A stretch of DNA of 64,000 nucleotides from Monocercomonoides exilis PA203 (Eukaryota > Protista > Preaxostyla), in the NCBI GenBank assembly GCA_001643675.2, contig LSRY02000018.1, forward strand, positions 1,178,001 to 1,242,000, read 5' to 3'. The notes under the pieces are model-generated. The model saw only the letters and a list, made by a program, of their open reading frames with translations. It had not been told where the DNA came from and ran no database searches. Below are positions 1 to 25,795 of this stretch, one piece after another (position 1 is the stretch's first letter; each line of letters starts with the position of its first letter). Both the position numbers and the translations under genes were made by a program.

Positions 1-3000
1 AATTGCTCCTTCGCCTTCTCCTTCTCCTCCATCATCATCATCATCATCTCCATCTGAACTTAATAACTCGTCAAGTGGAGAAGATGAAGAATCAGAATCA
101 GAAGAGGAGGAGGAAGAAGAGGAAGAGGAAGAGGAAGAGGATGATGACATTGGAGATACACTTGAAAAATTGTTAAAGCTCAAAGAAGATGAAGAAGATG
201 TTGAAGAAGAAGAAGAGGAGGAGGAAGAAGAAGAGGAAAGAGAAGATTCATCATCAACATCATCTTCCTCATAATCTCTTTCTCTTTCATCTTCATCCTT
301 TTCATCATCATCATCTTCTTCTTCTTCTCCCTCTTCTGAATTCTCTCCAAAAATTCTTCCTTTCAATCTGCTTCTGCGTTCTCCATTTACCTTCTCTTTC
401 TCTTCTTTTTGTTCTTCATTTGTTTCTTTTCTCATATTTTTCTGTGAAGCTGATAAACTCAAAGAAGAAGAAGAAGAAGAAGTTATTTTATTCGTCTTCG
501 TTGAAACCGTTCCAGAATTTCCCTCAAAGTTGGGCGAAGCCAACTGTCCACTCAACATTTCCTGTTCTTTTTCCTTTGGCAGCTCAACAAGAGACACAAG
601 TTTTGTGTTTGTGCTGTTTTGTGGATGATCATTTTGTCTGAAATATACAGAAGATAAATGAGAGGATGATGATGATGGGGAATGCAATGAAAAAGAAGAA
701 GAAGACAAAGAAGCAGAAGAAGCAAAAGAAGAAGAGGAAGAAGAAGAAGCAGAAGAAGCAGAAGCAGAAGAAGAAAGCGTTGAATCTTTCCCTCCATAAG
801 CCGAGCCCACTGCTGACCCCAGCTTCATATTGAGAGCAATTCTGTTCTGTTTGGCAATCGCCATTTTGTACTCCACCAGCTCATTCCACGTCCTCGTGCC
901 TCTTCTCCTTCTGTTGCTCAGCTCGATCCACGCTGAATCAATAGACTCACTCCATTTTCCTGTAAGAACCATCCCCTGTTGTGAGGAAGAAGAAGAAGAA
1001 GAAGAAGAAGAAGAGCCTTCAGAACGACGAATAGAGTCAGAAATGGATGGATTTATGTCATTTCCTGTGATCTCGATGTTGTTTGAATTAAAATTCATTT
1101 TGATTAGTTTTTCTCCTTCTCCATCTTCTTCTTCTTCCACATCTCCTTCTTCTCCTCTCTCCATCCTCTTTCTCCTCCTCCTCTTCTCCTCCTTCCTCCT
1201 CCTCCTCTCCCTCTCTTCCTCTTTCTCTCTCTCCACTCTCCATCTGTGCAGATCACCTCCCATCTCGATCGTCTTCACAATCGCCTTCTGCAGCAGCAAT
1301 GGATTGCCCATCAGCTGCTCCAATGAATCAACAGTAACTGCCCCCAGCAAAACTCTCTCTCCTTTCCTCTGCGAGCGAACAAGCGGAACATATAGCAGCC
1401 CCATTGCTCTTGCCAGCTGCATTTCTCTTCGGATGTCTCTGACAGTGGAGAACGGGACAAGCGCTATTGTGGTTGTCTTCATCAGGTCTTTCACAGTGAG
1501 TGAGGATGTGGCGGTCAAACGGCGAGGGATCGTGAAGTGCATGGGAGGAGGCAGAGGGCTGGCTGTGCGTGGGATGATTGAGCTTATTGCTTCATCTGAC
1601 TGAGAAAGAACTGAATTTGAATTTGAAAATGAAGTTGAATTCGAATTTGAACCAATTTCATTGGAATTTAAATCAGCTGCATTTTGCCCAAGAACCTTCA
1701 GTGTGTGTTCCTTGTGCCTCATCTCGTCTCTAATTCTCTTCTTTTCCTCTTTCTCCAGCTTCTTCCTCTCCTTTTCCAATCTCTTTCTCTCCTTCTCCTC
1801 CTGCTTCTCAATCTTCGCCTCTATCTTCTCTCTCCACTCCTTCTTCACAAACGGAACTTTGTGCGGCAGTTTCGGCGACAGATACGGAATCCCCCTGAAC
1901 TTCATCAGCATCGTGTACATCGAGTCCGACAGCGCCATCGACGTCAGATAAGCAGCCAGCACGCCCAGCACACAGCTCAAAGACACATTTGCCATGCCAC
2001 TCATCTCAATCACAATCAGTGCAGGAGATATGGTCTGTGTGATGCCTGCCAGAAACGCAGCTGCGCCCACTGCGCCGAAGGGAGACACCTCCTGAAAGAT
2101 GGACGGGAGAGAGAGACGCAGAATCTCTCCTATCAAACGCCCGCCCACTGCTCCAACAACAAGGGAGGGCATCACAACACCAGCTGGCACTGCGATCTGG
2201 AGAGAGAAGGGGAGGATGACAAACTTGATGGCAATGATGAGGAGAAGCGTGGTGATCCCGGCAACTCCGCTGGAAGGGATGGTACCTGATTAGAAAAAAA
2301 AAAAAAAAAAAAAAAAGAGGAAATTTGAAATTGAAGAAAAATAATTTAATTAATTAACACAACGTTAATAAGCGAATGTTCTTATTGAAAAATTACTCTT
2401 TCTCTCTCTATTTATTTTTTCTTTTCCCATCAATGAAAATCATATTCAAACAAAATAATCCCTCCCTTCTCATTTACACCATCCACACCTCCTTTTCTCA
2501 CTCCAAATCCTGCCCATCCGTTCAGAAACGAGTCAGGCAAGGGCTCCACCAGCATGTCCATGAGGAGATAGCCAGAGGCAGTGCCAGCTGAAGCAAAGCC
2601 ACCAAAAGGGATGGTCAGAAGAGCATTGGCAAAGGCGACGAAGAAGACGATGATGTATCGCTTGTTGTACATGGCAAGATGATCAGCCACAATTCGGTAG
2701 ATTCTGCTGAAGAAGGTCTGGTTGGAGGGCTCTGTGGAAGAAGAGGATGGCTTCTTTTTGGGGGAGGAAGAAATGGAAGAATGGGTAGAAGGTGCATGAA
2801 GGGATGAAACAACAGGAATAGAAGAAGAAGAAGAAGAAGATGATGATGATGATGATATTAACTGCCCAGGCATTGAAGGCGAAGTGGAGAGGGAAGGAGG
2901 GGAATAAGGCACGATTGAGACAGCAGCAGTTGCTGACTGTGTAGGCTTCAGATAGGCAACAGCAGGCGGATAGGCAGAAGGAGGCAGAGGAAGTGTGGTG

Positions 3001-4553
3001 GGCGACTCGACACGCGTGACGACTGTTTTGCCTTCGTCAGCGACAGACGAATAGACAACACTGTCACTTATGAGACGGGGCTTTGACCTTCGCTTTTGTT
3101 CTTCTTGGCTCTCCAAGTGATGGAGGGATGTGGGAGAAGAAGAAGATGATGATGAAGAAGATGAAGAAGATGATGAAAATGATTGAGAACAATCACTCAC
3201 CACAAAAACATTCCTTTTTTTGCTTGCATTCGCACTGCCTTTGGCATCTCCTTTTCTCATCATCGCCTCTTCCTCTGGAATGTCCTCATTGTCCACAATC
3301 TCAAACTCCCTCTCGTTCGCATCCATCGAAAACCTCACCTCCATTCTGGCCCCCGAAAACGCAGCAGCGACCTGCGTGGGGAAGTCGAGTGATGTGCCTT
3401 CTTTGTTCTTCTTGTTCGTCTGCTCAAAGCGGCGGAACATGTGTGCCGTGCGCTTTGTCAGCTGGATCAGGCACACAGACAGCACCCCCATCACCACGCC
3501 CACACACAGAAACGCCAGCAGCTCCAGCAGCGACGGCGACGACGGGTTGGTGGGCTCCTGGCCGAGCGGGGAATAGTCGAACTGCTTGAAGATGGTGAAG
3601 ATAAGCCCTGCAAACCCTGAGGCGAAGAACGTGGAGCCGTAGTTCTTTGTCAGGAACAGGTCGGACGTAACCTCAATGGAGAAGAGCACCCCGCCGATCG
3701 GCGCGTAGCACGTTGCAGCCATCCCAACAGCCACAGCAAAGGACAGCCTATTCCGCTTCAGCGACTCTGTCTCTAGGAAGGAGTTGAAGCAAGGCAGATA
3801 CTTCATCAGAAGATATCCAATGATAAATGAAACAGAAGTCATGGGCCCCACACGACCAACGTAAAGCCCTGCGCCCAGCGCCATCATACATCCGAATAAT
3901 TTCGACATTGCTGTTCGAAACGTCAAATACTGAGGAAAATCAACGCCATTCAATATCGCTTTGATTTCAGGAATCCCCGACCCAGAACCAGCTCTGGGAG
4001 ACAAAGTTGCAGTTGTTATCGATGAAAGGATTCCAAGCACTAAACTATAAGCAAGATGTATCGGGATTTTCCATCCAAAATTGTCAAATAAGTTGTAAGT
4101 GTACTGTTTAAGTTGTCGAAAAGGAACATTCGTCACCCAATCCTGAAAGAAAGAAAGTGTTGTTGCAATAATTGACATAAGTACAATGTAAGCAGCAACT
4201 TGAAGAAATGAGTATCTTCCAAAGCATGAAACACAGCAAGAGCAACATTGGTTTTTAACTGCTTTTTTTCTTGATCTTGCAAATTCTTTTTGTGTTGTTT
4301 GAGAAATAAAAGGAGAAATAGGCATTTTCATATTAAGATTTTGCTTGAGTTTTACGTATTCTTCTGCAAATCGAAAGTATGCCCTGCTATCCTGATCATC
4401 TCGAATACGATGCTTTTCGAGTACTTTTCTTCGATGAGAAAATGTAGCAAAATCCTCTGGAAGAAATGATGATAGAATCGGTATGTCCAAGCACATGGCA
4501 CCAACAACAGCATCGTTCGATTGCTTCGCAGCTTCAACACTCCTAAATAACAA
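1..4553 (-). CDS. CLC-family chloride channel with CBS-like cytoplasmic region; multi-exon, 3' end runs off the window
   Basis: Exon 4553-~2490 has GSGIPEIKAILNG, GRVGP and APIGGVLFSIEVT. After a poly-T-containing intron (~2490-2286 on the minus strand) the frame reads VPAGVVMPSLVVGAVGGRLIG, GAVGAAAFLAG and SMYTMLMKFRGIPYL, then a CBS-like segment (~1560-1340) and Ser/acidic tracts open to base 1. The true start is probably in a small upstream exon. Confidence 0.93.
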
Positions 4554-4914
4554 ATTTTTAAAATAATATTTGAAAAATATGATATTGGAAAGCGATTATA
4601 AAATGTTAAACACATACATATAATATCTTTGCGCTCCAGCAAATATTAATTGAAGAACTTTTTTAGAATTTTCAAAATTGATATGGTTATGGTTATGATC
4701 GATAAATATTTCTGGTATGTTAGAAAAATGTTTGTCATAAAATATCCGAAAAATGTGCAAAGTCGGATTTTAATTAGTACCCAGTAAACATGTGTTACAG
4801 ATTGAAAATTTTTGCCGTGTCCGTCAGTAATTAAAAATCCACGTCAGTGTTGGTATTTAAAAATAATAAATTTATTTTCTCTGATTTTTGGACTTTTCGT
4901 AATATATGTCTAAA

Positions 4915-5140
4915 TTTTTTTGAAAAGTTCCTTTAGTTTAATTTTCAAATAAAATAAAAATTTCATATTTCGATCATATTTCTGTTCACTCTTACGAAAC
5001 TTCACTAAAATGGAAGAATAAACATTATTAATATTTAGCTTTCATGACATTGAAATTTGGAAAGTTGGAACAGAAATGTGATCGAAATATGAAATTTATA
5101 TCTTATTAGAAAATAAAACAAAAGGAACTTTTCAAAAAAA
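4915..5140. repeat. Foldback/MITE-like element with ~73-bp imperfect inverted arms
   Basis: 4915-4987 (tttttttgaaaagttccttt...tttcatatttcgatcatatttctgttc) is the approximate reverse complement of 5068-5140 (gaacagaaatgtgatcgaaatatgaaa...aaaggaacttttcaaaaaaa). Confidence 0.8.
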
Positions 5141-5715
5141 TAATATTATTATTACAAGGTTGTATGCTAAATTTTTCTGAAAATTAATTCTTCAAAAGAA
5201 AGATCTGAATATTTAAAGTTTTATTTTTTTTGATCAATGTTTTGCTCGCTTTTCCAGGAGTTTTTGAAACCGAATGTTTTGCTTGTTTGTATTGTTTTTA
5301 AACCTTTCTTTTTAACATTTTTGGTTATTTTATAACTTGAGAAACTCCTTTTTTTTAATAGTTTTCACACATCACCTGTTTTTTGAAAAACTGAAATTTA
5401 TAAGAAATATGTTGTTATTTTTTGAATTAATCATGCGTGCATGATTAACAATTAAGAATTGTAAATATTCGTGGGGAAAATAATTTATACAATATATTTT
5501 TCTCAGTAAATTAAAATTTTGAAATTGTGTTTTCGCGTTTTTCTTTTTATGCACATTATATGGGTCATTCTTTTTGAAAAGTTGCAAATTTTAAATACTA
5601 GGATATTAAAAAATTGTTCCTTATTTGGGTATTTTTTTTTGAAAAGTCACAAAATATTAATTGATCTGAAAATCAGATCACAAATGATCAGAAAATGTTG
5701 ATCATTCCGTTACCA
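5138..5715. repeat. Long inverted repeat, left arm (~578 bp)
   Basis: Reverse complement of 17310-17887 with about 2 visible mismatches; mirrored spurious ORFs 5372..5587(-) and 17438..17653(+) are identical. Confidence 0.95.
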
Positions 5716-6299
5716 TTATATATTGCTGAATGTTATTCTATTGAGTTTTGTCACCCTATCCCCAAATATTGCGATTTAATAAAATAGATTTCAAATACCC
5801 AATTTACTATTGTTACACTTTTATTATTTAAATGTTTTTTTCTTGTTTTTTGAAGTCACAGAAAAATTTATTTATATTTCTATGTTTTCATTTCAACTGT
5901 TTAAATCTATGTTTTAATTTTTCGAATGGAGACTTCATTTTAAATATGTTCATTTGTTGAAAAACAGATAGATTTTAACTTGCTTTTATTTGAGAAATTT
6001 GAAAAGAAATTATTAAACAGGAAAATTTCATCGAAACAATCCTTGTTGTTATTAAAAGAAATACAAAAGGTTGTTAATATTGAACAGTTTTTAATGTTAT
6101 AACAAATAAATAAAAAACAACATATTATTTCTGATATCAAATGTCCTTTTATAAAAATTCAAAACAAAAATGGTATATCAAATCTTGAATCAAATCATGA
6201 ATCATATCTTTAATAGATGCCAATTGCTCATTTGCTTTTTTGCTCATCTATATCTTCAAATTTCAACTCAACTTTTGAAAAAACCTTGTTTCATCCTTT

Positions 6300-7529
6300 T
6301 CCCATGGATCGAGAACTGTATGCTTTTGTTGCTGGTTGACCATTCAGAAAAAAATGAAAATGTTGTGTTTGTATCACAGGTGGAGCTGCCTGATGACATG
6401 ATGGGAAATGTCTCATCAAACTTCTTGTAGCGTTGGAAGCGAAGCAGCCGTCTCTTCGCCCAGCGCCTTCGTCTTCTTCGTCTTCTTCAACTGGAGCAGC
6501 GCGCAGATCAACTTCGCCATTCCGGAAGCGAAGAAGCGAAGAGAAGAAGGCGACAGGAGATGTTAACTTATCAGCATTTTCATCTTCATATTCATATTCA
6601 TCATCAGCACCTGCGATTGACCCTTCGGATGCCTTGGCAGAGGCAGAGTCAAACACGTCAGCGGGAGCGATGGACGACATTGAGAGGAGGCTGCGGATTG
6701 TGGTGCCAGAGGCAGCTGGGGTGTATGGGCGGCACATGCCGCTGTCGCTGCAGCTGCTGCTGTCGTAACGGGCGCTGCCGACGCTGCGGGGATATGTTGT
6801 GGCGCGGCTGGCTGTGCTGTATAAGTGTGTTGTGTGTGCGTGCTTTGTGGCACCTTTGGAGATGCTTTCGATTCCTCCGGTATACCCGCTTTTATCGCTT
6901 GCAGCGTTGGTTGGAACGAAGTTGGGGAGCAAGATGATATTTGTGGCAGCAGATGTGAATGCGTTCATGTCGATGTACGATCTGTTTGACCCGTCGTGGC
7001 AGGAATCGTTATCTTTTCAGCTGAAATATTTGGTGGTGAAACTGGACGATTTAGTGACGGGGAGATGTGCAGCAATGTTTGAAAAGGGGAAGAGCTGAAG
7101 AACAAGTAGGAAGACCTGCAGAGGACAAAGGCGAATGCTGTGTAGACGCTTTGCAAGACGGGCAGGAAGTTCGAGGCGCAGGTGGCGGAGCTGGCTGGGG
7201 AGAAGGAGGGGCTGGGGCGGTAGATCTGGGAGCTGAAGGAGCAGCACGAGGAGGCGAAGCAGGAGATGAAGAAGCGGTATTCGGAGTTCGTCATGCTGCT
7301 GCAGAAGATCCTGGACAAAGAGCGGATATCGAAGCCTTCGAGCGTACAGGTGGAGCAGCTGCAGGAGAAGGACAAGATCATCCGGATGCGGGAGAGGAAG
7401 ATTCTGCAGATGAGCGAGAAGCACATCGCAGAGGTGAAGGAGCTGCAGGAGCATTTGGTTGCGACGAAGGAGAAGGTCGAATTTATTGATGAAGGGATTG
7501 AGAACGTAAAGAGGCAACAGAAGCAGTAG
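6300..7529 (+). pseudogene. Decayed member of an unknown host gene family (copy A), followed by a coiled-coil-like fragment
   Basis: SSSAPAI...DDIERRLRIVVPEAA..YGRHM segment is homologous to 20760-22100; in-frame stops and frameshifts present. Confidence 0.6.
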
Positions 7530-9676
7530 AGTCGGGTGGTAAATGTGGATGGCAAGCGGAAAATGATGTATTGGTGGTAACGCTTGCTACGCCTTCATCA
7601 TTGGCCTCAGCTGAAAGAGTGATGATTCCGTTTTCTTCTTTGTTGATTCTGCCTTCTGGGTTTCGTAAAAACTCAAATGAGAAGCTTGCAGTAAGCATCG
7701 GGGATTGCCGCGTTGCAAAGCTATTACCAAACTTGAACAGGAAGGTGGTTGCAGTGAAAATGGGGAACGCGGTGAGTGTTGTGGGAGAAGCAAACAGCGG
7801 TGTGTGTGTGTGTGTGTGTGTGGTGGTGGTGGGGGGGGAAATGAGGTGGAAGTTAAGGAACGAGACCTGGAATCAGAGAAAGATATGAAAAGAATGGTGC
7901 TGTCGAAAGTGCAGGAAAAGACGATACACATGCAGAAGGCACTGTTCAACAGATGAATGAGAGCTGCGGACGGAGCTTGTGTAATAGAAGTTGGAGCAGA
8001 AGAAAAAGAAGGAGTTGTACGAAGAGACGATGGAGCATCAGATGAGAACGGTTTCTTGGTCACTTAGGCAAGTTGATCACGACACGGCGCAAGAGCTTTG
8101 GGTACTGATCACTTTGCAGTTGTCTGTGCAGATGAAGCGTTTGTTGAATCCGCTGAAAATAGGGCTGAAGTCGTCGCTTGTGTTGACGCTTACGTTGATT
8201 CTAGGGATATTCGGAGACAAGATCGCAACAGACTTGGAAGATGGAATCGCTGTGTTTGTGAGAGTGGTGGTTCCGAGGCAGTAGTTTGGGGATTATGTAT
8301 TCATGTGTCTGAGGGTTAGGCACGTAGAGCAGAAGAAGAGCGAGGCCGCACAATTAAAGATGATCAAAGTCGTGGAGCTGTTACAAAAGGACTTTGCAGA
8401 TGTGTTGTTGCTAGGGAAGCTTGTGCGGGAGGAGAGCAAAGGAGACAAGTTGTGGTTTTCATGACAACTGCAAAGTGCTATTTGATAGTTTTCAGTTGAA
8501 TCCACTTGCAGAAGAGAGCTAGATCTTCCTAATGACTTTGGACAGGATGTTTCGGAAGAAAATCAATACAGTGGTTAAAGAGGCTTCGGAGTAGAAAATC
8601 GAGATGTTATTTTGGGGGAGTTTGAGGGATTTTTTTCGGAGAAGGGAGAGGCAGACTCGTCTGTGTTTCTGAGGTCTTTGAAGAACTTCAACCAAGCGGA
8701 AGCAATGAAGTTGAAAAAAGGACGCGATTATGGCGCTGCACGATGCAATACGTAGCTGCGATCCATTGACTTTTTCATCATCATCATTTCACGAAGCTTG
8801 GTGAGGGATCACTTATTCGAACAGGAGTCTCTTTTGTGAGAGAGCATTCCGCAGATGCAGCACGCGCTGTTGTTGCGGATCTTTCGGGATGTGTACATGC
8901 TGTCTTGGTGCTGTTTGCCATTATATGTGTCGATGCTGGAGGCGTGATATCGCAATTACTTCTTCACGCTGTTACTGAAGCAACAATATAAATTTAATTC
9001 CTCCGAAATTTGAGCATATCTGTATCAATCTGAGAAAAGTACGGTAAAGAAGGCAGTTAGCCTGCATTCTGCTCTGTTGAAGATGGCTCTTAATGGCCAG
9101 GCGCTGGTGATTTCGAGACATCAACAGTGGCAAGGGCAGGGGCGGGGGTGGAGGTGGTTCAGAAACGGCAGATGGAGTCAACGCAGTGGGCTATGTGGAA
9201 GACAGAAGGGCAGCTGGCACTGTTGTAGATGGATGGGTTGGTTGTGGAGTTGGTGGAACTGCAGATGAAAAGAACGAGGTGGAAAAGGCGATCAGCTTTG
9301 TGTTGCCGCTGTGTGATGGCAGCATGAAGAGCTGTGTCACAAGGCTATGGAACGGCAGAGGGAGATCGGAAGAGTCAATGCATTGTCAAGAATCATCATC
9401 TTTCTCTTCCTTCTTTTCCTTCCTCTTCCTCTTCCTCTGCTTCCTCTGCTTCCTCTGCTTCCTCTTTCTTCTTGTCGCATTCATTTCCTTTCAAAAGCTT
9501 TTGAAAGAAACAAATATACAGTCACATTGAAAATGCAACATTTGTTTTTTGTCATATTTCTGAGCAAAACGCGCGAAAAGAAGTTGAAGAAGTCGAAATG
9601 AAAAAGAAGGAGGGTGTAAACCTATAATAGAAGAGGCTGTTTTCGTATTCATTGAGGAGTTGTTAATTGAGGAGAT

Positions 9677-10737
9677 CTAAATAGAAATTGTTCCTGAATT
9701 CGAACCATGAATCGCAATGATGCAACCTTCAGACAGCTTCACGCCATCAGCATCAATTCCATTCAGCACAACACTTCCACATTTTCCAATCTCAAATATA
9801 TCTGTTGTCGATTTGATTTGTTTCAGTTTCACATTTGTAATATAAATCTCATCTCCTTTAAGGAAAAATGAAGGCTTCTTGAAGGAAAGGAGTGACATTG
9901 AGCATTGTCAACATGAAAATTTCCACTTTCAATGCTCAATAATGATGAATTGAGAACATCAGGTTGATTGTTACTTGATTCACAGTAAAAAGATACTCGG
10001 CAAATGAAAGAGAAAGTTGTCCATTTGTTTCAAAAATAATGGAACTGCCTGAATAAGAAAACAACTTACATATGAGAAATTATACACTCTCAATCTGGAC
10101 TTTCTGTGAGGTTGTGATAAAGATCCCTTCATCTTTAGAAATTGTTGAATTCAGATATACAAAAGCGGCTGAAGGAGATGCTAGCGAGTGCATGCTGACA
10201 TTATGTGCACTGCATTCCCCAACAATAACTGTCTCCTTTGAGATCAACAGTTGTGAGCACAGATATAGAATAATGTGTTGCTCTGCAATGCTCAATGAGT
10301 GGCATGATGTGTCCAACTCTCCACATTGCTTGCTATCTTCGTAAATGTCTGCAACTGAAGATATCAATATCGTTTCGCTCATGTATTTTACGACCCTCAG
10401 CAGAAGATCCTCTTCCCCCACAAATAAACCTGTTGAACATCCCCACATTGTCAGCTCCTTTACAAATGGTGCTCTGAAATCTGCAGCAAATTTTCCAAGC
10501 TAAAAAAATAGAAATTTAACATTTTAATAGAATAATATAGCATTTAAATGAAAGATAGATAAAAACCGTTTGATTTGTGTGTTTAACATCTTTATCAAAC
10601 TTGTGGGAGGATTCTTTGCATTAATTGAAATTCCAGCCGCATTCTGTGCAATGAAAAATTATTATCAAATAAAAATTTGATTCATTAACGAATCTCAATT
10701 TTTAACTGGAAAAAGAATCCATACAAACTATGAACAT
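9677..10737 (-). pseudogene. Truncated, degenerate paralogue of the giant surface-receptor family
   Basis: ETILISSVADIYEDSKQCGELDTSCHSL matches the family D..CG....(P)C.(S/T) module start; ATG (MFI...) at 10737; fragmented frames. Confidence 0.6.
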
Positions 10738-10849
10738 TTTATATATCAGCAGTTACAGAATAGTTTAAGCAAATAAAACAATAATTCATAGCAAAATTGA
10801 AATTTAAATTTTGATAAGAAAACGGAAACATAATTTATTGTTTAAATAG

Positions 10850-10937
10850 TTTTTTGAAAAGAAGAATTTCACAATTATCAAACAAACTTTTCCATGAAAG
10901 TTTGTTTGATAATTGTGAAATTCTTCTTTTCAAAAAA
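10850..10937. repeat. Perfect hairpin: 41-bp arms, 6-nt loop
   Basis: ttttttgaaaagaagaatttcacaattatcaaacaaacttt-tccatg-aaagtttgtttgataattgtgaaattcttcttttcaaaaaa; imperfect extension to ~10834/10952. Confidence 0.95.
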
Positions 10938-10986
10938 TTATTAAACAATAAAGAAATTTGAATATTATTTTTGATCAAAGCAAAAA

Positions 10987-13900
10987 ATGTTTATAGAGCT
11001 TTTACTATGCTTATTTTTATTTTATAAAAAACATGTTCAATAGCACTATTGAGAAGCACAATACTGCACAATTTTTTTGGTTGTGAAATGAACTGTCAGA
11101 GTTTATTTCAACATATACAAGAATAATTCTTATTATCATATTACAAGTGAAATTGCGTATATTTTTACAAAACGAACATACCAGAAAATGCAAAATTTCT
11201 GAATTTTGTTCCCATAGTGAAGTGACAGCAGTTATTTAAGGAGTGATAGTGTTTTTGGATCAAGAAACAGTATAATACAGCCAGGGAGAAAAAACCTTCT
11301 TGATACGGGAGAACTTTTATTTTTGTGGTATAAGCGGGAAACACACACCCACAAGAATCTGAGAGTATTATTGCCGCTTCTACACATGGTGCATCAATCA
11401 ATATTCGTTATTGTTTATTTGACTGAATAAGCGCAATTGAAAATGAAGAGCTCATTCATGGAGGAGATTTCAATTTATCAAATTTGGAAAAAAACTAATA
11501 TTGATTTCATCAAATTTCAGCAAGTGTTGCGCAAATCGTGGAGAAGCGATTTACCGCGTTGATCATATGAAAAATGAACAATACAAAGATCTTGCTTTTG
11601 AAAATTGCTCAATTTCACATTCCTATGGAATGGTGTGTTTCTTACGTCTGAAATATCTTCGGTCATCAGGAACCTTCATTTTTTCAAACACTCGTTTTGT
11701 GAAAAATTGGGATGGAAATTCTTCTGGTTACATATAATTTAATTTCGCTTTGCCGAGTATTAACCTTTCAGCACTTTTGATCACAGAAAATATGATTATC
11801 TTGAACACAGTTAATGGAATATTTACAAATTCAACAATTTCAGGAGGAGCAGGAATAAACTTCAGTGGACTTTCGGAACAAGCTGTTCAGACTCAATTGA
11901 TAAGATATTATTTTTTCCATCAAAATGACGCGAAGAACGGAAATGGTGAACTGTTCAGTGCATATGGGAATAGAGGAAACTCCGAGATTGTGATTGATGG
12001 GTGCAAGTTATGTTCATCATGCGAAAACGGAAACGAGCTGAAGGGCGGATCTTTGTTTATCCAGAAACAGGGGAATATGAACGTTGCTGTGAACAACACC
12101 AGATTCAGCAACTGAAATGTACCAAGCGGTGAAGAATTAAATAGAGGAAGAGGATTAGGAGGAGGGATATATCTGCATATTTCAGATAATAATGGGATTT
12201 ATTCTCTGAAAAACCTGACATTCTTTGAGTGCAAAGCGTGGAAAGGAAACAACATATTTGTGGATGCCAACAACTTGACTGAAGCAGTTCGAGCGGATAA
12301 CTTCCAAATAGCTTGGAGGGAGATGAACAAAACGGATTTGATGGGGTATGAGCGAATCTCCTGCAATCGAGAATGTGCGATTCCTTTGGCTGCATTTCTA
12401 ACTTCATTTTCAGGAAGCGGATATGTTGGAGGCGAGACAGATGGAAGGTACGATCACTCAGGAAGCGAATTTCCATTTGCGTCTTGCCACACGATCAGCA
12501 AAGTTGTTGAATTGAGATTTGGATCAGCGCAAGAACATGGTGTTGCCGTTGTTCTTCCATCGTTCCAGCTCAACAGCTGCTCAAAGCTTGCTTCATGTTC
12601 TGTTTCTATTTTATCGACAACAAAAAATACTTCTGTTTTTGTTTGCAGCAACGGGAGCGGGGAAGGGGATGGTTTGATTGAGACAGAAGCAGATGTGTCG
12701 ATTTCGAATATTACGTTTTCCTTGCCTCCAAGCTTCGTTGAAACGCCTCGTTTGTTTCTGATTCTGTGCCAGCAATCAACTTTGAGCATTGCTAATTGCT
12801 CAACAACAAGGCAAATAGAAAGCGAGGCAATTCAATTCAGCATTCTTTGTGCAACAGGAGGCGAAGTGCATTTAACTGCATTTGAGTTGAAAAGAATTGA
12901 TTGTGGGGAAGTTGCTGCAGTTGAGCTGAGAGGACAAGGAACATCATTATCTGTTGCAGGATGCACTATTGAAGGGATTGAGAGCCAGACTTCACATGGG
13001 CTTATTCACTTGAGTGATGGATCTTCAACCGACATCAAGAAGCTAACAGTCAATGGCTCATCACTGGAAAGTGGCAGTGTCATTTCTTTTGGGGAAGGAA
13101 GCGGAATGAAAATACATTCAAGTGAATTGTCGAATGTTACTCGTAACAATGGGAATGGCCCAGTCTTTTCAGGCGTTATTGGACAGGGAAAGCGAGTGGA
13201 GATCAGTGGCTGTGTGTTTTCGAAAGACATGTGCCAAGGCGAGATTCCATTTGGAGGGATGGGTGCATTGAATGTGTCGGATGGAGGAGAGCTGATATTC
13301 ACTCAGAACAGAGTGGAGAGCTGCACAGCGCTGGGAGCTAGGGGGTTTGGAGGAGGGCTGCATCTGAAATTCGATGCGAATGTTCAGTATTCGATGAAGT
13401 CAAACACTTTCACAGGAAATCTTGCCTCAAAGGGAAGTGATCTGTTTCTGCTTTGCGGGAATCCAGAAACGCTGATCAAAGAAGACCTGTGGTATGGCAC
13501 AATCGACGAGTTAAACACGCCTGAGCCAAATTTCTGGGTTATGGACTCCGTTGAAAGCACAGAAATTGACTATTCAATCAAGAAATATCTGTTTTCTGGA
13601 ACAGGAGATATCATTTTTGTTGAGGCAGGAAAAAGCACGTTGCCGAACTGTGGAAGCGATGCAAATCCATGCGATCGATTGGAGGTTGGGATGAGCAACC
13701 TGAAAGAGAACCAGACGACTGTGCAGATCAACAACTACAACTGGGTTTCTGGAGAGATGAGAAGAGATGGGAAGTGGCTGACCATCCGCGGAGTTGCTGA
13801 CAAATACGAGCTGAGAGTTGAAAGCAACGGTTTCTTCAATGCGGTCGATGGTTTAACGCCAACAGTGCTTCTTCTCAACAGACTTGTTTTCAAACTACCA

Positions 13901-14420
13901 ATCTCACCGGTAGAAGGCAACACTGGGGTTATTCAGATGAATGGCGGACGAGTGACAATCCTGAATTGTGAGTTTGGAGGGAGCGACGGTTCTGTAGAAG
14001 CTGGAAAGCTTTGGATAGTTGTTGGAGAAAGAGGAGAGGCACAGCTTGAGAGCGTATCATTTTCTTATCTGACTTTTCCATCGAGCTTCGGAATAGCTCG
14101 GTTGGAGAGAGGAGAGATGTCTATCAACAATCTGAATGCATCTCATGTTACATCTGAAAGAAATGTTTTGCACGAGAAAATTAAATGCGAAAGCTTTGGA
14201 ATCAATGTTGAAAATATTTCTGATTGCTTTCGTTGGATTTGTTTTGTATGTTGTTTGGTGCAGAAAAGTCAAGAATGAAGCAGATAATTTGAGGGAGTTA
14301 GTGAATGACTGAGTGAGAAAAGATCCGAAAGCATTTTAGATGGTGACGATGGAGATGCCGCTGGAGGAGCAATGGATTTGAGCTGAAAGAGAAGCTGACA
14401 AAAAGAACGTTTTGAAGATA
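10987..14420 (+). pseudogene. Internally deleted paralogue of the giant surface-receptor family
   Basis: 672-aa open stretch 12260-14278 with FVEAGKSTLPNCGSDANPC and FGGGLHL...N.A.KG.DLF motifs; 5' part broken by stops. 14250-14420 reads WCRKVKNEADNLRELVND*VRKDPKAF*MVTMEMPLEEQW, homologous to the juxtamembrane region at 37390-37555. Confidence 0.8.
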
Positions 14421-14504
14421 TGTCACAAAGATTTTGAATATTCAAAATGTTTGGAGACAAGCATTATCTTCACACTTCTCTTTCAATTCAAAGTTCAGAT
14501 TTAT

Positions 14505-16778
14505 TTAAAAGTTAGCATCATCATTGTCACTTATAATCGTTCCACTTATCTCTTCTACATAGCCTTCTTCATCAATGAGAACAATAGCTTCCTTCCTTCT
14601 TTCTTCGTCTTCAACATCCCATTGGCAAACATTTTGAGAATAAGTGCGTCTTGGTTTATTATCAAAATTATCTGTTTCTTCGGCTGTTTCTTCGGCTGTT
14701 TCTTCGGCTGTTTCTTCGGCTGTTTCTTCGGCTGTTCCTTCGGCTGTTCCTTCGGCTGTTCCTTCTTCGCATGGAAGCAATTCTGATATTGAATGATTGT
14801 CTTTTTCCTCTTCCCATCTTCCCAAAATAAGTGAAAGTGTTTGCTTTCCCATTGGAGAAGAGAGGCAAGAGTATATCTTGCTTGTTGCTTGTTTCTTCGC
14901 TCTTTCGAAAGAAACAGCAACCCTCACTTCACTCCATCTTGTATTTTCTTCTTCGTTGAATGGAGCAGCGAAAATCCTTCCTTCTTCGCTGCTCCATAAA
15001 AGATTTTTCTTCAACTCTTTCACCCTCAGCTTCGGTGAGACTCTCACCTGAAGCCGAGGGGTGTATGGGAGGAAGTGCCTATTGATTGAGGCACTTCCTA
15101 TCTCATCTGTTGATGAGTTAAATCTTTTTTTGAAAAAAGAGATTAGCTCATCAACAGATGAGATGTCCTCTCGAGAGTTCTGTGCTTCTCTCGAGAGGAC
15201 ACCAAACTCTCCATCAACCTCGCTTTTTCCGTGTACTTCTGCAAAGAAGGAAAGCGAGGTTGATGAGAATGTTTTGAAGATTTTTGATGAAGGATAAAGA
15301 AGAAAATGCAGAAAAGAGCCATTCCGAAAATGGGGACCGCAGTCGGTCCACACTTTGAGCGATCTGTTTGTACGTGAAGAGTGAAGAAAGAGTTCAAGTG
15401 CATTTTCAAGGCAGTCGATAGAATATCGACTGTCCTTGGAAAGCACTTCTGAAAAAAAGTGGAAACAAGATTTATAATGAATGTTGTGTTGTGATTGATG
15501 AATTACAACACCCAGGTGAGAAACTTCTTTCTTTTCATAAAAATCTCTGCTCACCTGGGATTGTTTTATTGGGATGCACCAGTTTTGTTTGTAATCGAGA
15601 ATAACAATTGTTTGTCCGAATGAAAGTTCTTCAATACATTTATGATAATAATTTCTCTGTTTGTTCTGGATTATTTGATGAATTTCTAATAATCTTTTTT
15701 CTTCCCTTTCCTTCAACGTTAAATGTCTGATTCTTTGAATCTTCGTTAATATTTCTCTTCGAGCACACAAATTACACACATCAGTTCTTCTTTTTGATTT
15801 TCGTATATTTTTTGAAAGTGTATAAAAGTGTGAATAGCTAAGTTTAACATCAATTTCCTTCACCATTTGCTTCCAAAGCGAATATTTGGATCCATTAATT
15901 ATACGTATTTCATTCTCAAACCATTTTTCATCTTCGTTTTTCAAAGTTTGATCAATTATATCGTTTGAAGATTCTTTCAAAAATGAGGACATCATCTTCT
16001 TTTTCATTTTAGAATTTTTTGTTTCGATTTTTGATGAATGCAATGTTTTCTCGATAGAGTTTTCATTTGTTTCATTCATATGAATATTATTCAAAATATT
16101 TGTATCATCGGATGAATTTCCGTTATTTGTTTCAGTCAGTACATAAAAGAAAGAAGTTTGGATAATTGGATCACATGTGCAGCTGGAATTTGCAGCGCTG
16201 CTTGAAGAGGCGGAAGACATGGCGCGAGAGGCGGCAGCTGGGCATGCAGTGGGAGATGAGCAGCTGGAACTTGCAGCGCTGCTTGAAGAGGCGGAAGACA
16301 TGGCGCGAGAGGCGGCAGCTGGGCATGTAGTGGACGATGAAAGTCGACACTTCAATGAAAAATTTTTATATTGATTTCTTTTTTTATTTAGACTTATTAA
16401 AGTTTTTGATATGTCAAATTGAACATTTGATAACTGTTTATTGTTTATAATTGTAATGTAATCTTTATGTACTTGTGAGAAATTTGTTTTTGATTTGTAT
16501 TGATTTGATTCAAGTTCTTCTTTGGAATTCAATGAAATATTTCGTTTGTTTTCTCCAATGGAGTTCTTTTTAATATTAAGAGAATGATTATCATATTCCA
16601 TCAAGTTTGGAGATGGAATATTTGGTATTTCTTTTTCTTTCTTTGTATTCAGAAACACCATATCATCTTCAGATAATTCTTCAATAATAGAATTTCGTTT
16701 TTTCCTTTTCTTTATGCAACTTTCTGTGGTGTGTTTTCGAAGCCACCATTCACAAAACGAAAAATTGAAATGAGTCAT
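14505..16778 (-). CDS. Sola-like (probably Sola2-type) DDD transposase
   Basis: TDVCNLC...H zinc-finger-like motif followed by VILDYKQN, WTDCGPHFRN and FFAEVHGKSEVDGEFG (three Asp-centred motifs); 757-aa uninterrupted ORF. Family assignment is from motif recall, not a search. Confidence 0.75.
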   Translation of the reverse strand: MTHFNFSFCEWWLRKHTTESCIKKRKKRNSIIEELSEDDMVFLNTKKEKEIPNIPSPNLMEYDNHSLNIKKNSIGENKRNISLNSKEELESNQYKSKTNFSQVHKDYITIINNKQLSNVQFDISKTLISLNKKRNQYKNFSLKCRLSSSTTCPAAASRAMSSASSSSAASSSCSSPTACPAAASRAMSSASSSSAANSSCTCDPIIQTSFFYVLTETNNGNSSDDTNILNNIHMNETNENSIEKTLHSSKIETKNSKMKKKMMSSFLKESSNDIIDQTLKNEDEKWFENEIRIINGSKYSLWKQMVKEIDVKLSYSHFYTLSKNIRKSKRRTDVCNLCARREILTKIQRIRHLTLKEREEKRLLEIHQIIQNKQRNYYHKCIEELSFGQTIVILDYKQNWCIPIKQSQVSRDFYEKKEVSHLGVVIHQSQHNIHYKSCFHFFSEVLSKDSRYSIDCLENALELFLHSSRTNRSLKVWTDCGPHFRNGSFLHFLLYPSSKIFKTFSSTSLSFFAEVHGKSEVDGEFGVLSREAQNSREDISSVDELISFFKKRFNSSTDEIGSASINRHFLPYTPRLQVRVSPKLRVKELKKNLLWSSEEGRIFAAPFNEEENTRWSEVRVAVSFERAKKQATSKIYSCLSSPMGKQTLSLILGRWEEEKDNHSISELLPCEEGTAEGTAEGTAEETAEETAEETAEETAEETDNFDNKPRRTYSQNVCQWDVEDEERRKEAIVLIDEEGYVEEISGTIISDNDDANF
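14672..14765. repeat. 12-bp tandem repeat (ctgtt[t/c]cttcgg) x~8, encoding (E/G)TAE repeats in the transposase tail
   Basis: Directly visible. Confidence 0.95.
16179..16340. repeat. 81-bp GC-rich tandem duplication inside the transposase ORF
   Basis: gcagctggaa(t/c)ttgcagcgctgcttgaagaggcggaagacatggcgcgagaggcggcagctgggcatg starts at 16179 and again at 16260. Confidence 0.95.
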
Positions 16779-16802
16779 TGCTTCAAAAAATATTAAAAAA
16801 GG

Positions 16803-17284
16803 TTAAATTAAGAATATATATAAACGTTTTCGAGCAGTTGGCGTATAGGGCTTTGATGAACGAATCACTCCATAATCATTACGTTTCAACATTCTTTTGG
16901 TATGAACAATGTTGTTCTTTGTGCAACTCCACCCCGCTTGAAACAGCTCTTGCTCCTTCACAACATTCAAAAATGTTTGCAAGAGCAAAACTTTGTCTTT
17001 TTTATTTAGTAAATCGTATAAAATTCCACAATGAAACAGAACTTTGGTATATTTTTCTTTTGCAAATAAAAACAAACTTTTTTTATAATTAAGAAAAACA
17101 ATGATAATACAATACCATTCAAACACTCAATGAATGATTGCTTAATTTTCTTTCCATTATTAGAATGGTTTAAGTAATATAATATTAGTTGATTCTCTGT
17201 GTTATTTGAACACTGGTTCAAATATTTTTTCAGTTCTCGACAAATTTGAGATTTTCTGCTTTGAGAATAAGTATCAAATTGCAT
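16803..17284 (-). CDS. Probable upstream exons (or frameshifted N-terminus) of the transposase
   Basis: Overlapping same-strand ORFs 17006..17284 (ATG, MQFDTYSQSRKSQICRELKKYL) and 16803..17126 lie directly upstream of the main ORF and abut the inverted repeat. Confidence 0.45.
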
Positions 17285-17309
17285 TTGTTTGATAATAAAT
17301 ATTTTATTT

Positions 17310-17887
17310 TGGTAACGGAATGATCAATATTTTCTGATCATTTTTGATCTGATTTTCAGATCAATTAATATTTTGTGACTTTTCAAAAAAAAATACCCAA
17401 ATAAGGAACAATTTTTTAATATCCTAGTATTTAAAATTTGCAACTTTTCAAAAAGAATGACCCATATAATGTGCATAAAAAGAAAAACGCGAAAACACAA
17501 TTTCAAAATTTTAATTTACTGAGAAAAATATATTGTATAAATTATTTTCCCCACGAATATTTACAATTCTTAATTGTTAATCATGCACGCATGATTAATT
17601 CAAAAAATAACAACATATTTCTTATAAATTTCAGTTTTTCAAAAAACAGGTGATGTGTGAAAACTATTAAAAAAAAGGAGTTTCTCAAGTTATAAAATAA
17701 CCAAAAATGTTAAAAAGAAAGGTTTAAAAACAATACAAACAAGCAAAACATTCGGTTTCAAAAACTCCTGGAAAAGCGAGCAAAACATTGATCAAAAAAA
17801 ATAAAACTTTAAATATTCAGATCTTTCTTTTGAAGAATTAATTTTCAGAAAAATTTAGCATACAACCTTGTAATAATAATATTATTT
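17310..17887. repeat. Long inverted repeat, right arm (~578 bp)
   Basis: Starts tggtaacggaatgatc and ends tacaaccttgtaataataatattattt; reverse complement of 5138-5715. Confidence 0.95.
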
Positions 17888-18039
17888 GTTTTAAAGTTAC
17901 TTTTATCAAACACAAGCTTCTATTTGAAGCAATATGAGATAAAAATTTTAGGATCAAATAAAAAACTGGGTACCTATTAAAATCTTTTTATAGGGTCATC
18001 TTTTTATTAGCACGTTTTTCTTTATTGGCACCAAAATTT

Positions 18040-19330
18040 TTAGAAATGAAAAAAAGTTAAAAAAAAAAATACAAAACTCGAATCAATAACTCTTCTCACT
18101 TTTCTTTTTTCATTTTCACGGTATAGGGGGTCAAATTCATCACTTGTTTTATCGTCATCATTCTTAATTTTTCTGAATTTCCTTTTCACTTTTTTCTCCA
18201 AAGGCAATTCTTCTTCTTCAATTTCCTTTTCATTTTCAACATTTTCTTCAGTTTCCTTTTCTTTTTCTTCAATTTCTTCAATTTTCATCTTGCGCTTTTC
18301 AATAAATTCATCCCATTCATCAAGAAGCTTTTCTTTTGTAATTTCTTTTCCGAAGAAGTCGAAACAATGTGAATGAGATGGAATGAAGTATTGAGAAGAC
18401 TGAGGAAGCTTCATAAGAACCGATCCAGATCCATTGCTGAGGATACCGAAGAAGATGATGGCTTTTTTGATAATCGATGGAGTGAATACAGTGTGAAGAG
18501 TTTGCGGTAACACATCTGCAACAGCTGTTCTTTTTGAAGATGAGGAGGTGGATGATAAGGAACTGTTATTGTTTGAAACCATTGACTCCAACACAACAAA
18601 GACACATCCTTCCATTGGCTGTGATATTTGTATTGCGTGGGAAACGAAGGTGATGACGTCAATTTCCGCTTCTTTGAACTGTCTCCATATAGTTGGATCT
18701 GCCAGCGATGAGTGTGAATCCAGGAGAAGAAGGCGACGATGTAATTCATTTAGTATTCGCTTTCTTCTGTTAATGATAGCTGGCAGCAGAACTGTTAAGG
18801 CGAATTTTTTTGAATGCTGTTTTGTCCATCCAACCGTTTTGTTTTTGGCTAAATGTCAAACGAAGGTATTGATAGTGTTAAACTTTCCTTTGGGAAAGCT
18901 TCACTTAAGAACAGCAAAAAAGACATAAGTGAAAAGTCATTTTCAGAGATTCCAATTGTGAGATTTGCATTCCTTTTTTGTTCTGCAGTTTTTTATGAAC
19001 AAAGATTGCTCATCAGTTAAATGAACAACAACACCTATTTATGAAGTTTAAATCCCACGAAAAGATTTTTCAAAGGTGAACATTTATTCTTTATGGTTTT
19101 TTTTTCATGGCACAGTTCTAAAAAAGCTGCATATCAAATGTTCTTTAATTTCAGGCAAGATGTTTCATGTTAATTATGAACAACACCCATTTACAACGAA
19201 AACTTGAATTCTAAATAGCGTTTTTTGAAATCGATAGCTGTATACAAAATTACTGGTTTTTTCTTCTTCTTCTGTCATTCTTTTTCATCTATTCGATAGT
19301 CATTTATATTTTCCATCAAAAAATATATTT
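18040..19330 (-). pseudogene. Degenerate pogo/Tigger-type (DDE_1, Tc1/mariner superfamily) transposase
   Basis: Manual translation upstream of the 191-aa ORF gives QNGWMDKTAFKK/FALTVLLP...RLLLLDSHSS...IDVITFVSHAIQISQPMEGCVF, the DDE_1 pattern (GWM, LLLD.H.S, H...QP.D..VF). Frameshift at the A-run ~18808; further eroded motifs upstream; 5' limit uncertain. Confidence 0.8.
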
Positions 19331-20759: not shown

Positions 20760-22970
20760 AAAGCATTTTTGGTTGGTCGACCTATCTGATCCGAATATGG
20801 ATATCGTGTTAACGCTTCCGATGGAGCTTTTGTTTTATATAAAGGCTTATCTTAATAAGAAGTCTTGCCGAAAGGACATCTCATCAATCGTCTCTTCTTT
20901 TGGAATCTTCAAATTCTTCATCTACTTCATCATCAGCCCCTGCGATTAGCCTATTTGAGATATTTATCGCAGCATCAAACGCATCTGCAGCAGCGGTGGA
21001 TGATATCGAGAGGCGACTGCGGATTGTGGTTCCAGAGGCGGCTTTGGTGTAAAGTCTAACCCGGATATAATCACATCGGTTTTTGCACAACTTTTTGTGA
21101 CTATATCCGATTGTGATTATACACGATGATGCTTTACACTGAAAAAAATAAAAATTAATTAATAAATCAATTAATTTTGGGTCAAATTTTTAATTTTTGA
21201 AAATTCTTCAAAAAAACGCATTTTACACTTGCGAAATGAATTTTTTTCATAAATAGACATTATTTTAACTTTTTTGAGTACATTTATAAAAAAGCGAAAA
21301 ATTGATATTTTTGATCAAAAAATCGATTGGGACAAAATTTTTTGTTTTATGTATTTTGTTCCACATAATTCTTTCAAAGATTTTTTTCGATTTTTTATAT
21401 TTTAATATTTAATATTGCACAATAATGTCAGAATAATAATCATTCGTTTGCAGAAAAAGCTTGGAACAAATCATTGAATTTTTCATAAAAGAAAAAATTC
21501 TGTCCCGATTTTTCATCGAAAAATGAACCCATTATAATAAAAAATGTGATTATATATTTTCATCCCTGCGATTATATGCGATGGAAATTGAATGAAAAAC
21601 AAGCAAAAAACATCGGTGCATCGAAAAATGTGATAATATACGAATGTGATTATATTCGACGTGATTATATCCGATTTAGACTGTATGTGCGGCACATGCT
21701 GCTGTAGCTGCAGCTGCTGTCTACGCAGACGCTGCGTGGATATGTTGTGGCTCGGAGGGGGGTGCTGTAGGGGGGTGTTGTGTGTTTATACGATGTGGCG
21801 CTTTCAGCGATGCTTTCGGTTCAGCTAGTGGCGCAGCTTCTGTAGCTTGCAACGTCTGTGGGAACGAAGTCGGGGAGAAAGTGGATCTCTGAGTAAATAT
21901 TTGTGAATGCGATTGCGGAGATTACGATCTGTTTGACCCGTCGCTGCAGACATGGTGATCGCCACAGTTGAAAAATTTGGTGATGATTCTGGATGACAAA
22001 GAGATGGGGCGATGTGCAGCAGTGTGTGAAGTGGTGGAGATTGCAAAGAAGGGGATGGAGGAGGTGGGGCTGAGGATGGAGGATGTGGTTCTGTTGCCTG
22101 AGGAAATTGTGCAGGCGGTGCTGGAGGAGCGGGAAGAGGAAGAGGAAGGAGGAGTAAATAAAGTGAAAAACGGGTATCCGACAGCGCACAGAGAGTTTGT
22201 GGAGAGAATCAAAGAGAACCAGGGGAAGCTGGAAGAAGCGATGGCACCACTGGTTGTGGAGGCGGTTGGGCTGAGTCTGCTGAGGTTTGTGAAGGTGGCG
22301 GCAGAGGCTAAAGCTGAGACTGAGACTGAGGCTGAGGATGAGGCTTATGCAAACAAGCAGCATTTAGTTGAACCAAAAGTGTGCAGTTCTTCTCCATCTG
22401 ATGGTATCCAACAGGAGATATCAAGAGCAGAAGAAGAAGCAGCAGTTGTGTCTTTTGGCATAACTTCGGATGAAAGTGCAGATGAATTGGTGAAAGATGA
22501 GGAATTTGCGCAGTTGTCGAAGAATGGTTTGACTGCAAATTAGGAGCAAGGGATAAAGGGTAGTTCGATTAATTTGGTAATGAAAGAGATAGAGAAAGAG
22601 ATCGAGGAAGAGGAAGAGGAAGAAGAACAGATTTTTGATGAGGAATCTCCACATTTGAAGTTTTTGAAGCTGATTGACGAGAGTGCATATGAGAGCTGGC
22701 AGGACTATCTGGTGGCAATGACGGTTACGGAGGTGCCGGTGGAGCTATGTGCAGAGTGTGAGCGTATTGAAAAGAAGCCGGTTATGGAAGGGATGATATA
22801 GCTGGACGGGAAGATAAGCATCACGTTTATTGGGGAGAGGCTGTTTGGGAGAGATGGAAGAGAGAAGAGAAGGGCATGGAAATATGAGTTTGGCATTGGG
22901 TGGTGAATTGTTGTATTTGGAAACCAGAACCAGGTAATTTGAGATGAAAAAAAAACGAGAAGACAGAAAA
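20760..22970 (+). pseudogene. Decayed member of an unknown host gene family (copy B), interrupted by a MITE
   Basis: Homologous to 6300-7100 on both sides of the 21052-21683 insertion; several stops; acidic ORFs 21968..22543 and 22574..22801. Confidence 0.65.
21052..21683. mobile_element. 632-bp pogo/Tc1-type MITE with TA target-site duplication
   Basis: TA|aagtctaacccggatataatcacatcg ... cgacgtgattatatccgatttagactg|TA. The paralogue at ~6720 shows the empty site gtgTAtg; several sub-terminal tgtgattatat repeats. Confidence 0.92.
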
Positions 22971-25530: not shown

Positions 25531-25795
25531 ATATGGGTGAAAAATTATTGTTATCAAATTTTTTTTCATGAGTTGATTTATCAGAGATTGTATGTTTATG
25601 AAAGAAATGTTTTATTCAAGAGAGAACAAGCATGATAGTTGTTTTTGAAACTAAAATGTTTCACCCTAATTAAAGATGAAGATGTATTCAATAAGCCTTT
25701 TCACTTTTCAATGTTCATTTGTGAATATTCAAGAAAAAATTTTCTACAGAGTATTTTGTTTGAAAAAACATAATTTCAAAAATTGTCACCCATAT
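25531..25795. mobile_element. ~265-bp MITE-like element (family M, copy 2)
   Basis: atatgggtga ... tcacccatat inverted ends; interior aaagatgaagatgtattcaataagccttttcacttttcaat matches 39988-40028. Confidence 0.7.

Follow-up and report, generated by a model that had tools for sequence, protein, structure and literature searches.

A Sola2-type transposon carrying decayed host gene pieces in Monocercomonoides exilis, with likely ends inside longer inverted arms

The 64-kb stretch of the Monocercomonoides exilis genome analyzed here (the window) contains a long, nearly perfect inverted repeat that encloses a transposase gene of the Sola2 type and a patchwork of decayed host gene pieces. The window was examined together with short-read contigs (runs X1-X5), a protein collection and metagenomic loci; contig depth served as a rough proxy for copy number only. 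The features of the element and its borders are as follows, with the strand given where one is assigned.

4908-5141: palindrome resembling a miniature inverted-repeat transposable element (MITE), adjoining the element; left end with the family end motif after ATAT, right end without recognisable terminus
5138-5557: outer left arm, 420 bp, a perfect inverted copy of 17468-17887 and likely a copied flank
5558-5561: ATAT, likely left target-site duplication (TSD); palindromic, and its match alone is no proof
5562-5715, plus strand: likely true 3' terminal inverted repeat (TIR), 154 bp; end motif at 5562, second motif at 5627, then TGATC-rich repeats
5716-14504: cargo, 8,789 bp between arm and stop codon, a mosaic of AT-rich DNA and decayed pieces of host genes
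6583-7083, plus strand: decayed fragment of the DDIERRLRIVVPEA host family, 72-73% identical to copies outside the element at 20915-21051 and 21682-22030
7098-7530, plus strand: decayed coiled-coil-like coding fragment with sub-threshold Pfam matches only
8060-9130, plus strand: decayed coding fragment with 9 stops in 357 codons and no Pfam match
10014-10493, minus strand: decayed receptor-ectodomain fragment (tblastn of host protein P0018, 25% identity, E 4e-6)
11663-14438, plus strand: receptor-kinase pseudogene piece, the largest; ectodomain joined to membrane-proximal region, without kinase domain
14505-17284, minus strand: Sola2-type transposase gene, three predicted exons, 891 aa
15776-15767, minus strand: CxxC sequence motif of the transposase
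15596, 15344 and 15215, minus strand: predicted catalytic residues D119, D203 and D246 of the transposase
16175-16340: two tandem copies of a GC-rich 81-bp unit that keep the reading frame, within the transposase's variable linker
17310-17463, minus strand: likely true 5' TIR, 154 bp, placed by end motif, loose contig ends and comparison with metagenomic locus L004
17464-17467: ATAT, likely right TSD; other loci diverge just beyond
17468-17887: right flank, likely the template of the outer left arm

The arms at 5138-5715 and 17310-17887 match each other as reverse complements along 578 bp except at two positions, 5681/17344 and 5697/17328, in agreement with the long near-identical repeats described in the initial annotation of this DNA. 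Short-read contigs show a second copy of the outer arm end: a single-copy right-flank contig of run X3 begins at 17858, the position predicted from a 31-mer branch at 17887/17888. Because the short reads branch at this point, an assembly artefact is ruled out as the origin of the arms. The initial annotation took the full 578 bp as TIRs. While the inverted repeat stands, its terminal status is doubtful, as the family end motif lies 424 bp inside the arms; the 578-bp match is probably an inverted repeat but not the terminal repeat of the element. The annotation had itself considered that termini closer to the open reading frame (ORF) would speak against its reading, and this was found in part, with the family terminus at 5562/17463. 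It follows from that position that arm identity dates an inverted duplication and not the insertion.

The transposase ORF at 14505-16802 (minus strand) is open over 765 codons from stop to stop, 757 counted from the first Met. An ATG at 17284 lies 26 bp inward from the inner edge of the right arm, and removal of two short GT-AG introns (17115-17057 and 16825-16781) gives an open predicted model of 891 aa. The second upstream exon aligns to a relative in the protein collection (P0029) and to L004, whereas the match of the first with the beginning of the L004 frame is weak (scores of the L004 exon alignments, 69 and 38). All three predicted catalytic residues are present in the model. Both an intact transposase ORF at one end of the element and a probable start about 26 bp inside the right arm had been anticipated from the sequence.

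A Pfam search of the transposase ORF returned no match, and Sola is stated to have no Pfam domain (PMC5751038). For the profile search proposed for the 757-aa ORF, Pfam was empty; a full HMMER search yielded 685 relatives at E<=0.001, and residues 280-640 used in a word-indexed search yielded one match among 4132 candidates. Two of the top ten relatives looked up come from M. exilis as well, with identities of 39% and 45%. Five residues (D203, F208, H240, K242 and D246) do not vary in an alignment of 120 rows, in which D119 reaches at least 90% conservation. A structure model of the transposase core (pLDDT 89.5) has IstA as its best Foldseek match (E 2e-5) and superposes on the Metnase, Mos1, IstA and integrase cores with Z of 10-11 and a root-mean-square deviation of ~3 Å over 140-185 residues. 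The conserved triad and the core model together predict a DDD transposase with an RNase H-like fold. The motifs RTDxCxxC, DYKQN, QVSRDFY, WTDCGPHFRN and HGKSEVD match the rows of the Sola2 elements DFa-2 and PPa-1 in the published alignment (PMC3627910, file S10); the Sola2 label rests on this comparison by eye and not on Repbase profile scores. By the tests run on its sequence the transposon behaves like Sola2 and belongs to it, which refines the earlier call of a Sola-like transposase through the DDD triad, the RNase H fold and the motifs common with amoebozoan Sola2. Mutator or foldback elements have long TIRs and TSDs of 9-12 bp; the transposase gave no MULE match in Pfam, and its motifs are Sola2-like instead.

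Some smaller features of the transposase gene were also recorded. The 81-bp unit at 16175-16340 is very high-copy in run X3, and its opposite strand reads as a plausible peptide. A 12-bp tandem repeat lies at 14674-14765 in the C-terminus, and one X3 contig is without 72 bp of it. Near-perfect small palindromes at 10834-10952, in the cargo, and 15100-15164, in the transposase core, both carry the motif TTTTGAAAA. One transposase relative (P0028) has a long insertion at residues ~270-450 in the variable linker; Pfam makes no call there, and from its motifs we take it to resemble an OTU-type protease.

The interior from arm to stop codon agrees with the ~8.7 kb of host cargo estimated initially. 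It contains at least five decayed pieces in both orientations: the DDIERRLRIVVPEA-family piece (6583-7083, no Pfam match), receptor ectodomain pieces and at least two further decayed fragments, as expected from the earlier claim of at least two host families. In the largest receptor piece (11663-14438) a deletion of ~1,400 codons joins the ectodomain to the membrane-proximal region. Its ectodomain is 72-88% identical to host paralogues, and the piece is 82-91% identical to five of six longer host proteins, two of which have a kinase domain on record. The nearest paralogues of the cargo are M. exilis proteins, and no single parent gene was identified among the host relatives compared. Host gene fragments thus lie inside the TIRs and have intact relatives elsewhere in the genome, as in Pack-TYPE elements. 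Contigs of the RNA run X5 match the cargo at 7913-9306 and 9943-10422 with 0-1 differences at a depth of 6-12, and are absent over most of the transposase; such contigs can show neither transcription nor its absence, and they were not used.

In described Sola2 elements, a G directly follows the AWWT target duplication (PMC3627910, section 11 and file S11). The window contains an end motif of AWWT followed by G-N13-GAAAA at 4908, 5562, 5627, 17398, 17463, 39766 and 40192. These seven are all the strict matches, each lying within the arms or at the end of an element; 200 shuffles gave 0.015 on average, with the pattern having been derived from the very sites counted. At 5562/17463, as in L004, a TIR starts with G right after the likely TSD. 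Neither the family end motif nor the terminal G is present where the 578-bp arms end on their outer side. The 3' TIR at 5562-5715 contains both arm mismatches, and the outer 420 bp of the two sides are identical.

Two independent checks support the inner ends, the first from contigs of other loci. Loose ends occur behind 17467 in six X3 and five X4 contigs and behind 17403 in four X3 contigs; as these positions are the outer sides of the two motif copies, contigs from other loci depart at the motif. No loose ends were found at 17874-17888 among the 12 of 69 rows listed, although rows of only 1-2 contigs are among them. An X4 contig (17794-17945) crosses the outer right edge unbranched at a depth of 2.7, compared with 7-19 on the transposase.

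The second check is from metagenomic loci. Among the 22 examined, L004 alone reached an element end, and none had a TIR pair tied to its transposase. L004 is a relative at 40% identity and carries the motif 153 and 101 bp upstream of the homologous ATG. In the M. exilis element these distances are 179 and 114 bp, while the outer arm edge is 603 bp from the ATG. The chance of one motif hit in the L004 upstream stretch is 0.009 with a loosened pattern, which also matched five other metagenomic loci away from ends. Judged from these sequence comparisons, the element likely spans 5562-17463 (11,902 bp) with 154-bp TIRs and an ATAT target duplication, and the outer 420 bp likely are an inverted copy of its right flank.

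Two further observations concern the metagenomic loci. In L004, no 3' TIR was found within ~880 bp after the transposase (3230-4112), where the DNA looks host-like; this relative may also have a long 3' region. Locus L011 has three adjacent inverted pairs (127-2160, 2430-7460 and 7369-10099), the last of which surrounds a distant transposase relative. For the M. exilis locus, a 12-bp palindromic TSD at the outer arm edge was considered and judged unlikely.

The X3 contigs of the flank have a depth of 100-101, while those of the transposase have a depth of 333-438, with 1-2 differences in 250-380 bp and one stretch at 762. These depths suggest about four near-identical transposase copies, along with others that are more distant. 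In X3, a contig whose span (14330-14484) was inferred from end distances extends from the receptor piece in the direction of the transposase stop at a depth of 346; it shares 30 bp with a transposase contig of depth 186. In X2, depth is 9 for a contig at 14168-14447 and 4 for the flank. A protein encoded on another contig, of different length (P0003), has the same internal Met start and the same abnormal tail as the receptor piece, and this tail is found in none of the eight host paralogues alignable there (13 compared). Because of this shared tail and the X3 and X2 depths, the cargo adjoining the transposase appears to be a family trait common to several copies.

Across sites, the cargo near the transposase is shared and the distal part looks single-copy. 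For the dispersal of receptor-gene pieces suggested in the initial annotation, there are signs that the transposase-proximal part travels with the family; movement of all 8.8 kb together is not borne out, because the distal cargo appears single-copy. A conserved 5' half with a variable 3' half fits the data, as in the DFa and PPa elements, but the cargo pattern also fits a left end that is only a copy.

With moderate confidence, we favor a Sola2 cut-and-paste transposon, likely of 11.9 kb, that encloses 8.8 kb of host pieces and whose outer 420-bp arms likely arose afterwards by repair copying of the right flank. What the data show are the arms, the transposase gene together with its motifs and fold, a cargo of host origin, an end motif that lies within the arms, and the divergence of other loci at that motif. 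As in other Sola2 elements, the transposase would bind ends of the form G-N13-GAAAA and insert at AWWT sites. The 3' part would be variable, the family having gained the deleted receptor-kinase piece beside the transposase stop, now common to several copies, and the present copy containing further, more private pieces. If the left end was broken, plausibly by the transposase, the left TIR may have paired with the right TIR and primed synthesis outward over 420 bp of right flank. The new strand could have rejoined the left side within the neighboring MITE: at the outer left join (5120-5141) there is ~20 bp of imperfect homology with the right flank, and the outer arm cuts into the right end of the palindrome at 4908-5141, which overlaps the left arm at its outer edge. 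In yeast, inverted repeats lying 30 kb from each other have been shown to fold back in single-stranded DNA (PMC10164571).

The same repair route would account for a much larger structure in the window, a palindrome at 26156-53833 with a second family member at its exact center.

39766-40192: MITE of 427 bp, carrying the same end motif and flanked by ATAT on either side, exactly central in palindrome 26156-53833

The palindrome arms, of ~13.6-13.7 kb, are 99.6% alike and hold receptor-kinase genes, whose long ORFs are intact in the right arm and frameshifted in the left. Of the 13 substitutions, six fall within the outermost 105 bp; there the left arm runs into a different predicted N-terminus, which looks like a join with a paralogue. 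A third MITE (25535-25791, 257 bp) has ATAT on both sides and GGGTGA ends but unrelated flanks, so inverted flanks are not a rule. The interior of this MITE is ~70% like the spacer of the giant palindrome, and a further end of the GGGTGA/ATAT type is found at 25319 on the minus strand. It is conceivable, although we hold it only tentatively, that Sola2 ends seed inverted duplications of adjoining DNA (0.42 kb at the transposon, 13.6 kb of receptor-kinase genes around the MITE) and that the family also ferries receptor pieces in its 3' half, which together would amount to a transposon-driven engine by which the genome's largest gene family expands.

Several observations weigh against the repair-copying interpretation or narrow it. 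The repair mechanism is inferred from structure alone, and the element is known as one full copy with one pair of ends at one locus. The ATAT flanking 5562-17463 is a palindrome within the arms and gives no independent proof of a TSD. Among the contigs that depart at 17467, some share only a 32-bp tip (loose ends before 17436) and are therefore MITE-like relatives, not full copies. The outer 420 bp score 49 against the L004 upstream DNA versus 35.8 for shuffles (P 0.04), while unrelated AT-rich stretches reach 48 (14 controls). P0003 is identical at 555 of 598 positions (93%) outside one gap, compared with ~99% for most transposase contigs. The distal cargo looks private to this copy and single-copy: in X1, 6750-7040 has a depth of 34 and 9493-9709 a depth of 27, with the flank at 34-36; in X3, 6769-7046 has a depth of 75, with the flank at 100-101; the contigs at 6737-7082 and 9493-9709 are at single-copy depth; and the nearest relatives are 95% identical at 9930-10670 and 92% at 11133-11379. 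The giant palindrome could be an assembly or fold-back read artefact rather than a real duplication. Its left arm is without 37 bases, mostly in homopolymers, versus six missing in the right arm, and multi-copy parts of the long-read M. exilis assembly stay under-polished (PMC8767320). Seeding of inverted duplications by TIRs is thus a hint from two cases, one of them possibly artefactual.

The main alternative to 5562-17463 as the element is 5627-17398, in which the true TIR is the inner 89 bp (5627-5715 and 17310-17398) and insertion took place 65 bp from the end of another family member, with 489 bp of flank copied. Both mismatches fall inside the inner 89 bp (P 0.023 if uniform), four X3 contigs depart behind 17403, and one contig joins a tip of the 5562 type directly to 5657 (27 letters on the short side). 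The flanks of this shorter element, ATTT and AAAT, form no direct repeat, however, and L004 also has two tandem motifs, 52 bp apart, which suggests the double motif as an end design; we consider this alternative unlikely. The opposite choice is that the full 578 bp are TIRs, perhaps with a palindromic TSD of 4-12 bp hidden in the outer edge, and that the whole 12.75 kb moved as a unit. Some Sola2 elements do have long TIRs, the arms are near-perfect, a 12-bp palindrome at 5139-5150 permits formal TSDs of 4, 6, 8, 10 or 12 bp, and the outer part weakly resembles L004 upstream DNA (P 0.04). Yet the outer edge is without end motif or terminal G, no cluster of loose ends lies there among the rows listed, depth across it is low, and described Sola2 ends start with G after AWWT (PMC3627910, file S11). 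Movement of the full 12.75 kb therefore seems improbable to us.

About as improbable is that there is no genuine left end, and that break repair placed an inverted copy of the whole 578 bp in junk DNA at a distance of 11.6 kb, in which case most of the "cargo" would be intervening DNA. This would agree with distal cargo that looks single-copy, with the same decayed families occurring outside the element (20915-22030), and with the DDE_1-like fragment and other repeats that flank the locus. It is harder to reconcile with both mismatches being in the TIR part and none in the flank part, and with transposase-adjoining cargo common to several copies, which must end beyond it. Insertion at the ATAT center of a pre-existing perfect 844-bp palindrome (a foldback element), with nothing copied later, would explain the symmetric flanks and the palindromic TSD in one step, and small palindromes are common here (4914-5141, 10834-10952). 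Since it requires a spacer-less perfect 2 x 420 bp whose outer ends have no element-like termini, and has no natural extension to the 13.6-kb case, whose arms contain whole genes, we regard it as very improbable. Repair copying around an element at 5562-17463 is the reading retained below.

The surroundings of the element contain further features. Numerous contigs have loose ends at 4903-4907, the left edge of the MITE-like palindrome. To its left, at 2430-4595 on the minus strand, is a voltage-gated chloride channel (CLC) gene, single-copy by contig depth. Just right of the element, 18040-18855 on the minus strand has a weak DDE_1 match (E 0.0013, below the cut-off) and probably belongs to a second, unrelated transposon. 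A weak 19-bp inverted pair (17471-17489 and 18013-18031, E 0.14) might mark an older element in the right flank and was not relied on. An ORF with a SPA / Avl9-DENN-like domain is found at 59446-61935 on the plus strand.

About 35% of the published M. exilis assembly is unclassified repeat that overlaps the tyrosine-kinase genes, the largest family (PMC8767320, PMC6759080). An apparently active Sola2 family with receptor pieces, and with ends at the centers of inverted duplications, would offer a concrete and countable mechanism for the expansion of that family, and the end motif AWWT-G-N13-GAAAA makes a class of the unclassified repeats of M. exilis classifiable. The locus also cautions that, where a transposase is enclosed by a long and perfect inverted repeat, TIR length can be overestimated fourfold and the insertion wrongly dated.

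The closest known systems are the Sola2 elements DFa-1/2/3 of Dictyostelium fasciculatum and PPa-1/4/5 of Polysphondylium pallidum (PMC3627910), which likewise have a CxxC after an RTD-like motif, D[FY]K[EQ]N and HGKS..D, a transposase of 888 aa versus the 891 aa predicted here, a 4-bp AWWT TSD followed by G (here the likely TSD ATAT), and a 5' transposase with a variable 3' passenger region. They differ in having TIRs of 12-21 bp, where the M. exilis element likely has 154 bp with a doubled end motif, and in their passenger, a Fanzor1 gene, where the present cargo consists of decayed host pieces accompanied by an inverted duplicate of the flank. The supposition that cargo-carrying Sola elements were undescribed in protists is not correct, given these Fanzor passengers 3' of the Sola2 transposase in both amoebae (PMC3627910).

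Pack-TYPE, or Pack-TIR, elements such as Pack-MULE and Pack-CACTA similarly hold host fragments of several families between TIRs; they are defined as non-autonomous (PMC12187468), while the 891-aa model here is an intact transposase. Because the element is autonomous, with an open predicted transposase and three predicted catalytic residues, the earlier label of a Pack-type element does not apply in the strict sense. The superfamilies named in the available text of the Pack-TYPE review are MULE, CACTA, hAT, Harbinger and Mariner, not Sola (PMC12187468). An open-access literature search found no report of Sola transposons in oxymonads, none of Sola among Pack-TIR elements, and nothing on inverted duplication of flanks at transposon ends.

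The giant Sola1-1_Ec32 of Ectocarpus (21.5 kb) is also a Sola element of more than 10 kb with extra content fixed among copies, but it belongs to the Sola1 subgroup, and the content of this and other giant Ectocarpus DNA transposons is a transcribed ParB/methyltransferase gene or nested transposable elements (PMC12477816). The proposed repair resembles yeast fold-back duplications, in which pairing in single-stranded DNA between inverted repeats separated by as much as 30 kb primes inverted copying of the flank; unlike the yeast case, where a dicentric chromosome forms from Alu repeats, the repeats here would be transposon TIRs and a short copy would have been rejoined locally (PMC10164571). 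Cargo alone is not new, since Sola passengers are known in amoebozoans (PMC3627910) and brown algae (PMC12477816). The novelty lies in the host receptor cargo of an oxymonad Sola2 and, as a hint, in possible inverted duplications seeded by its TIRs.

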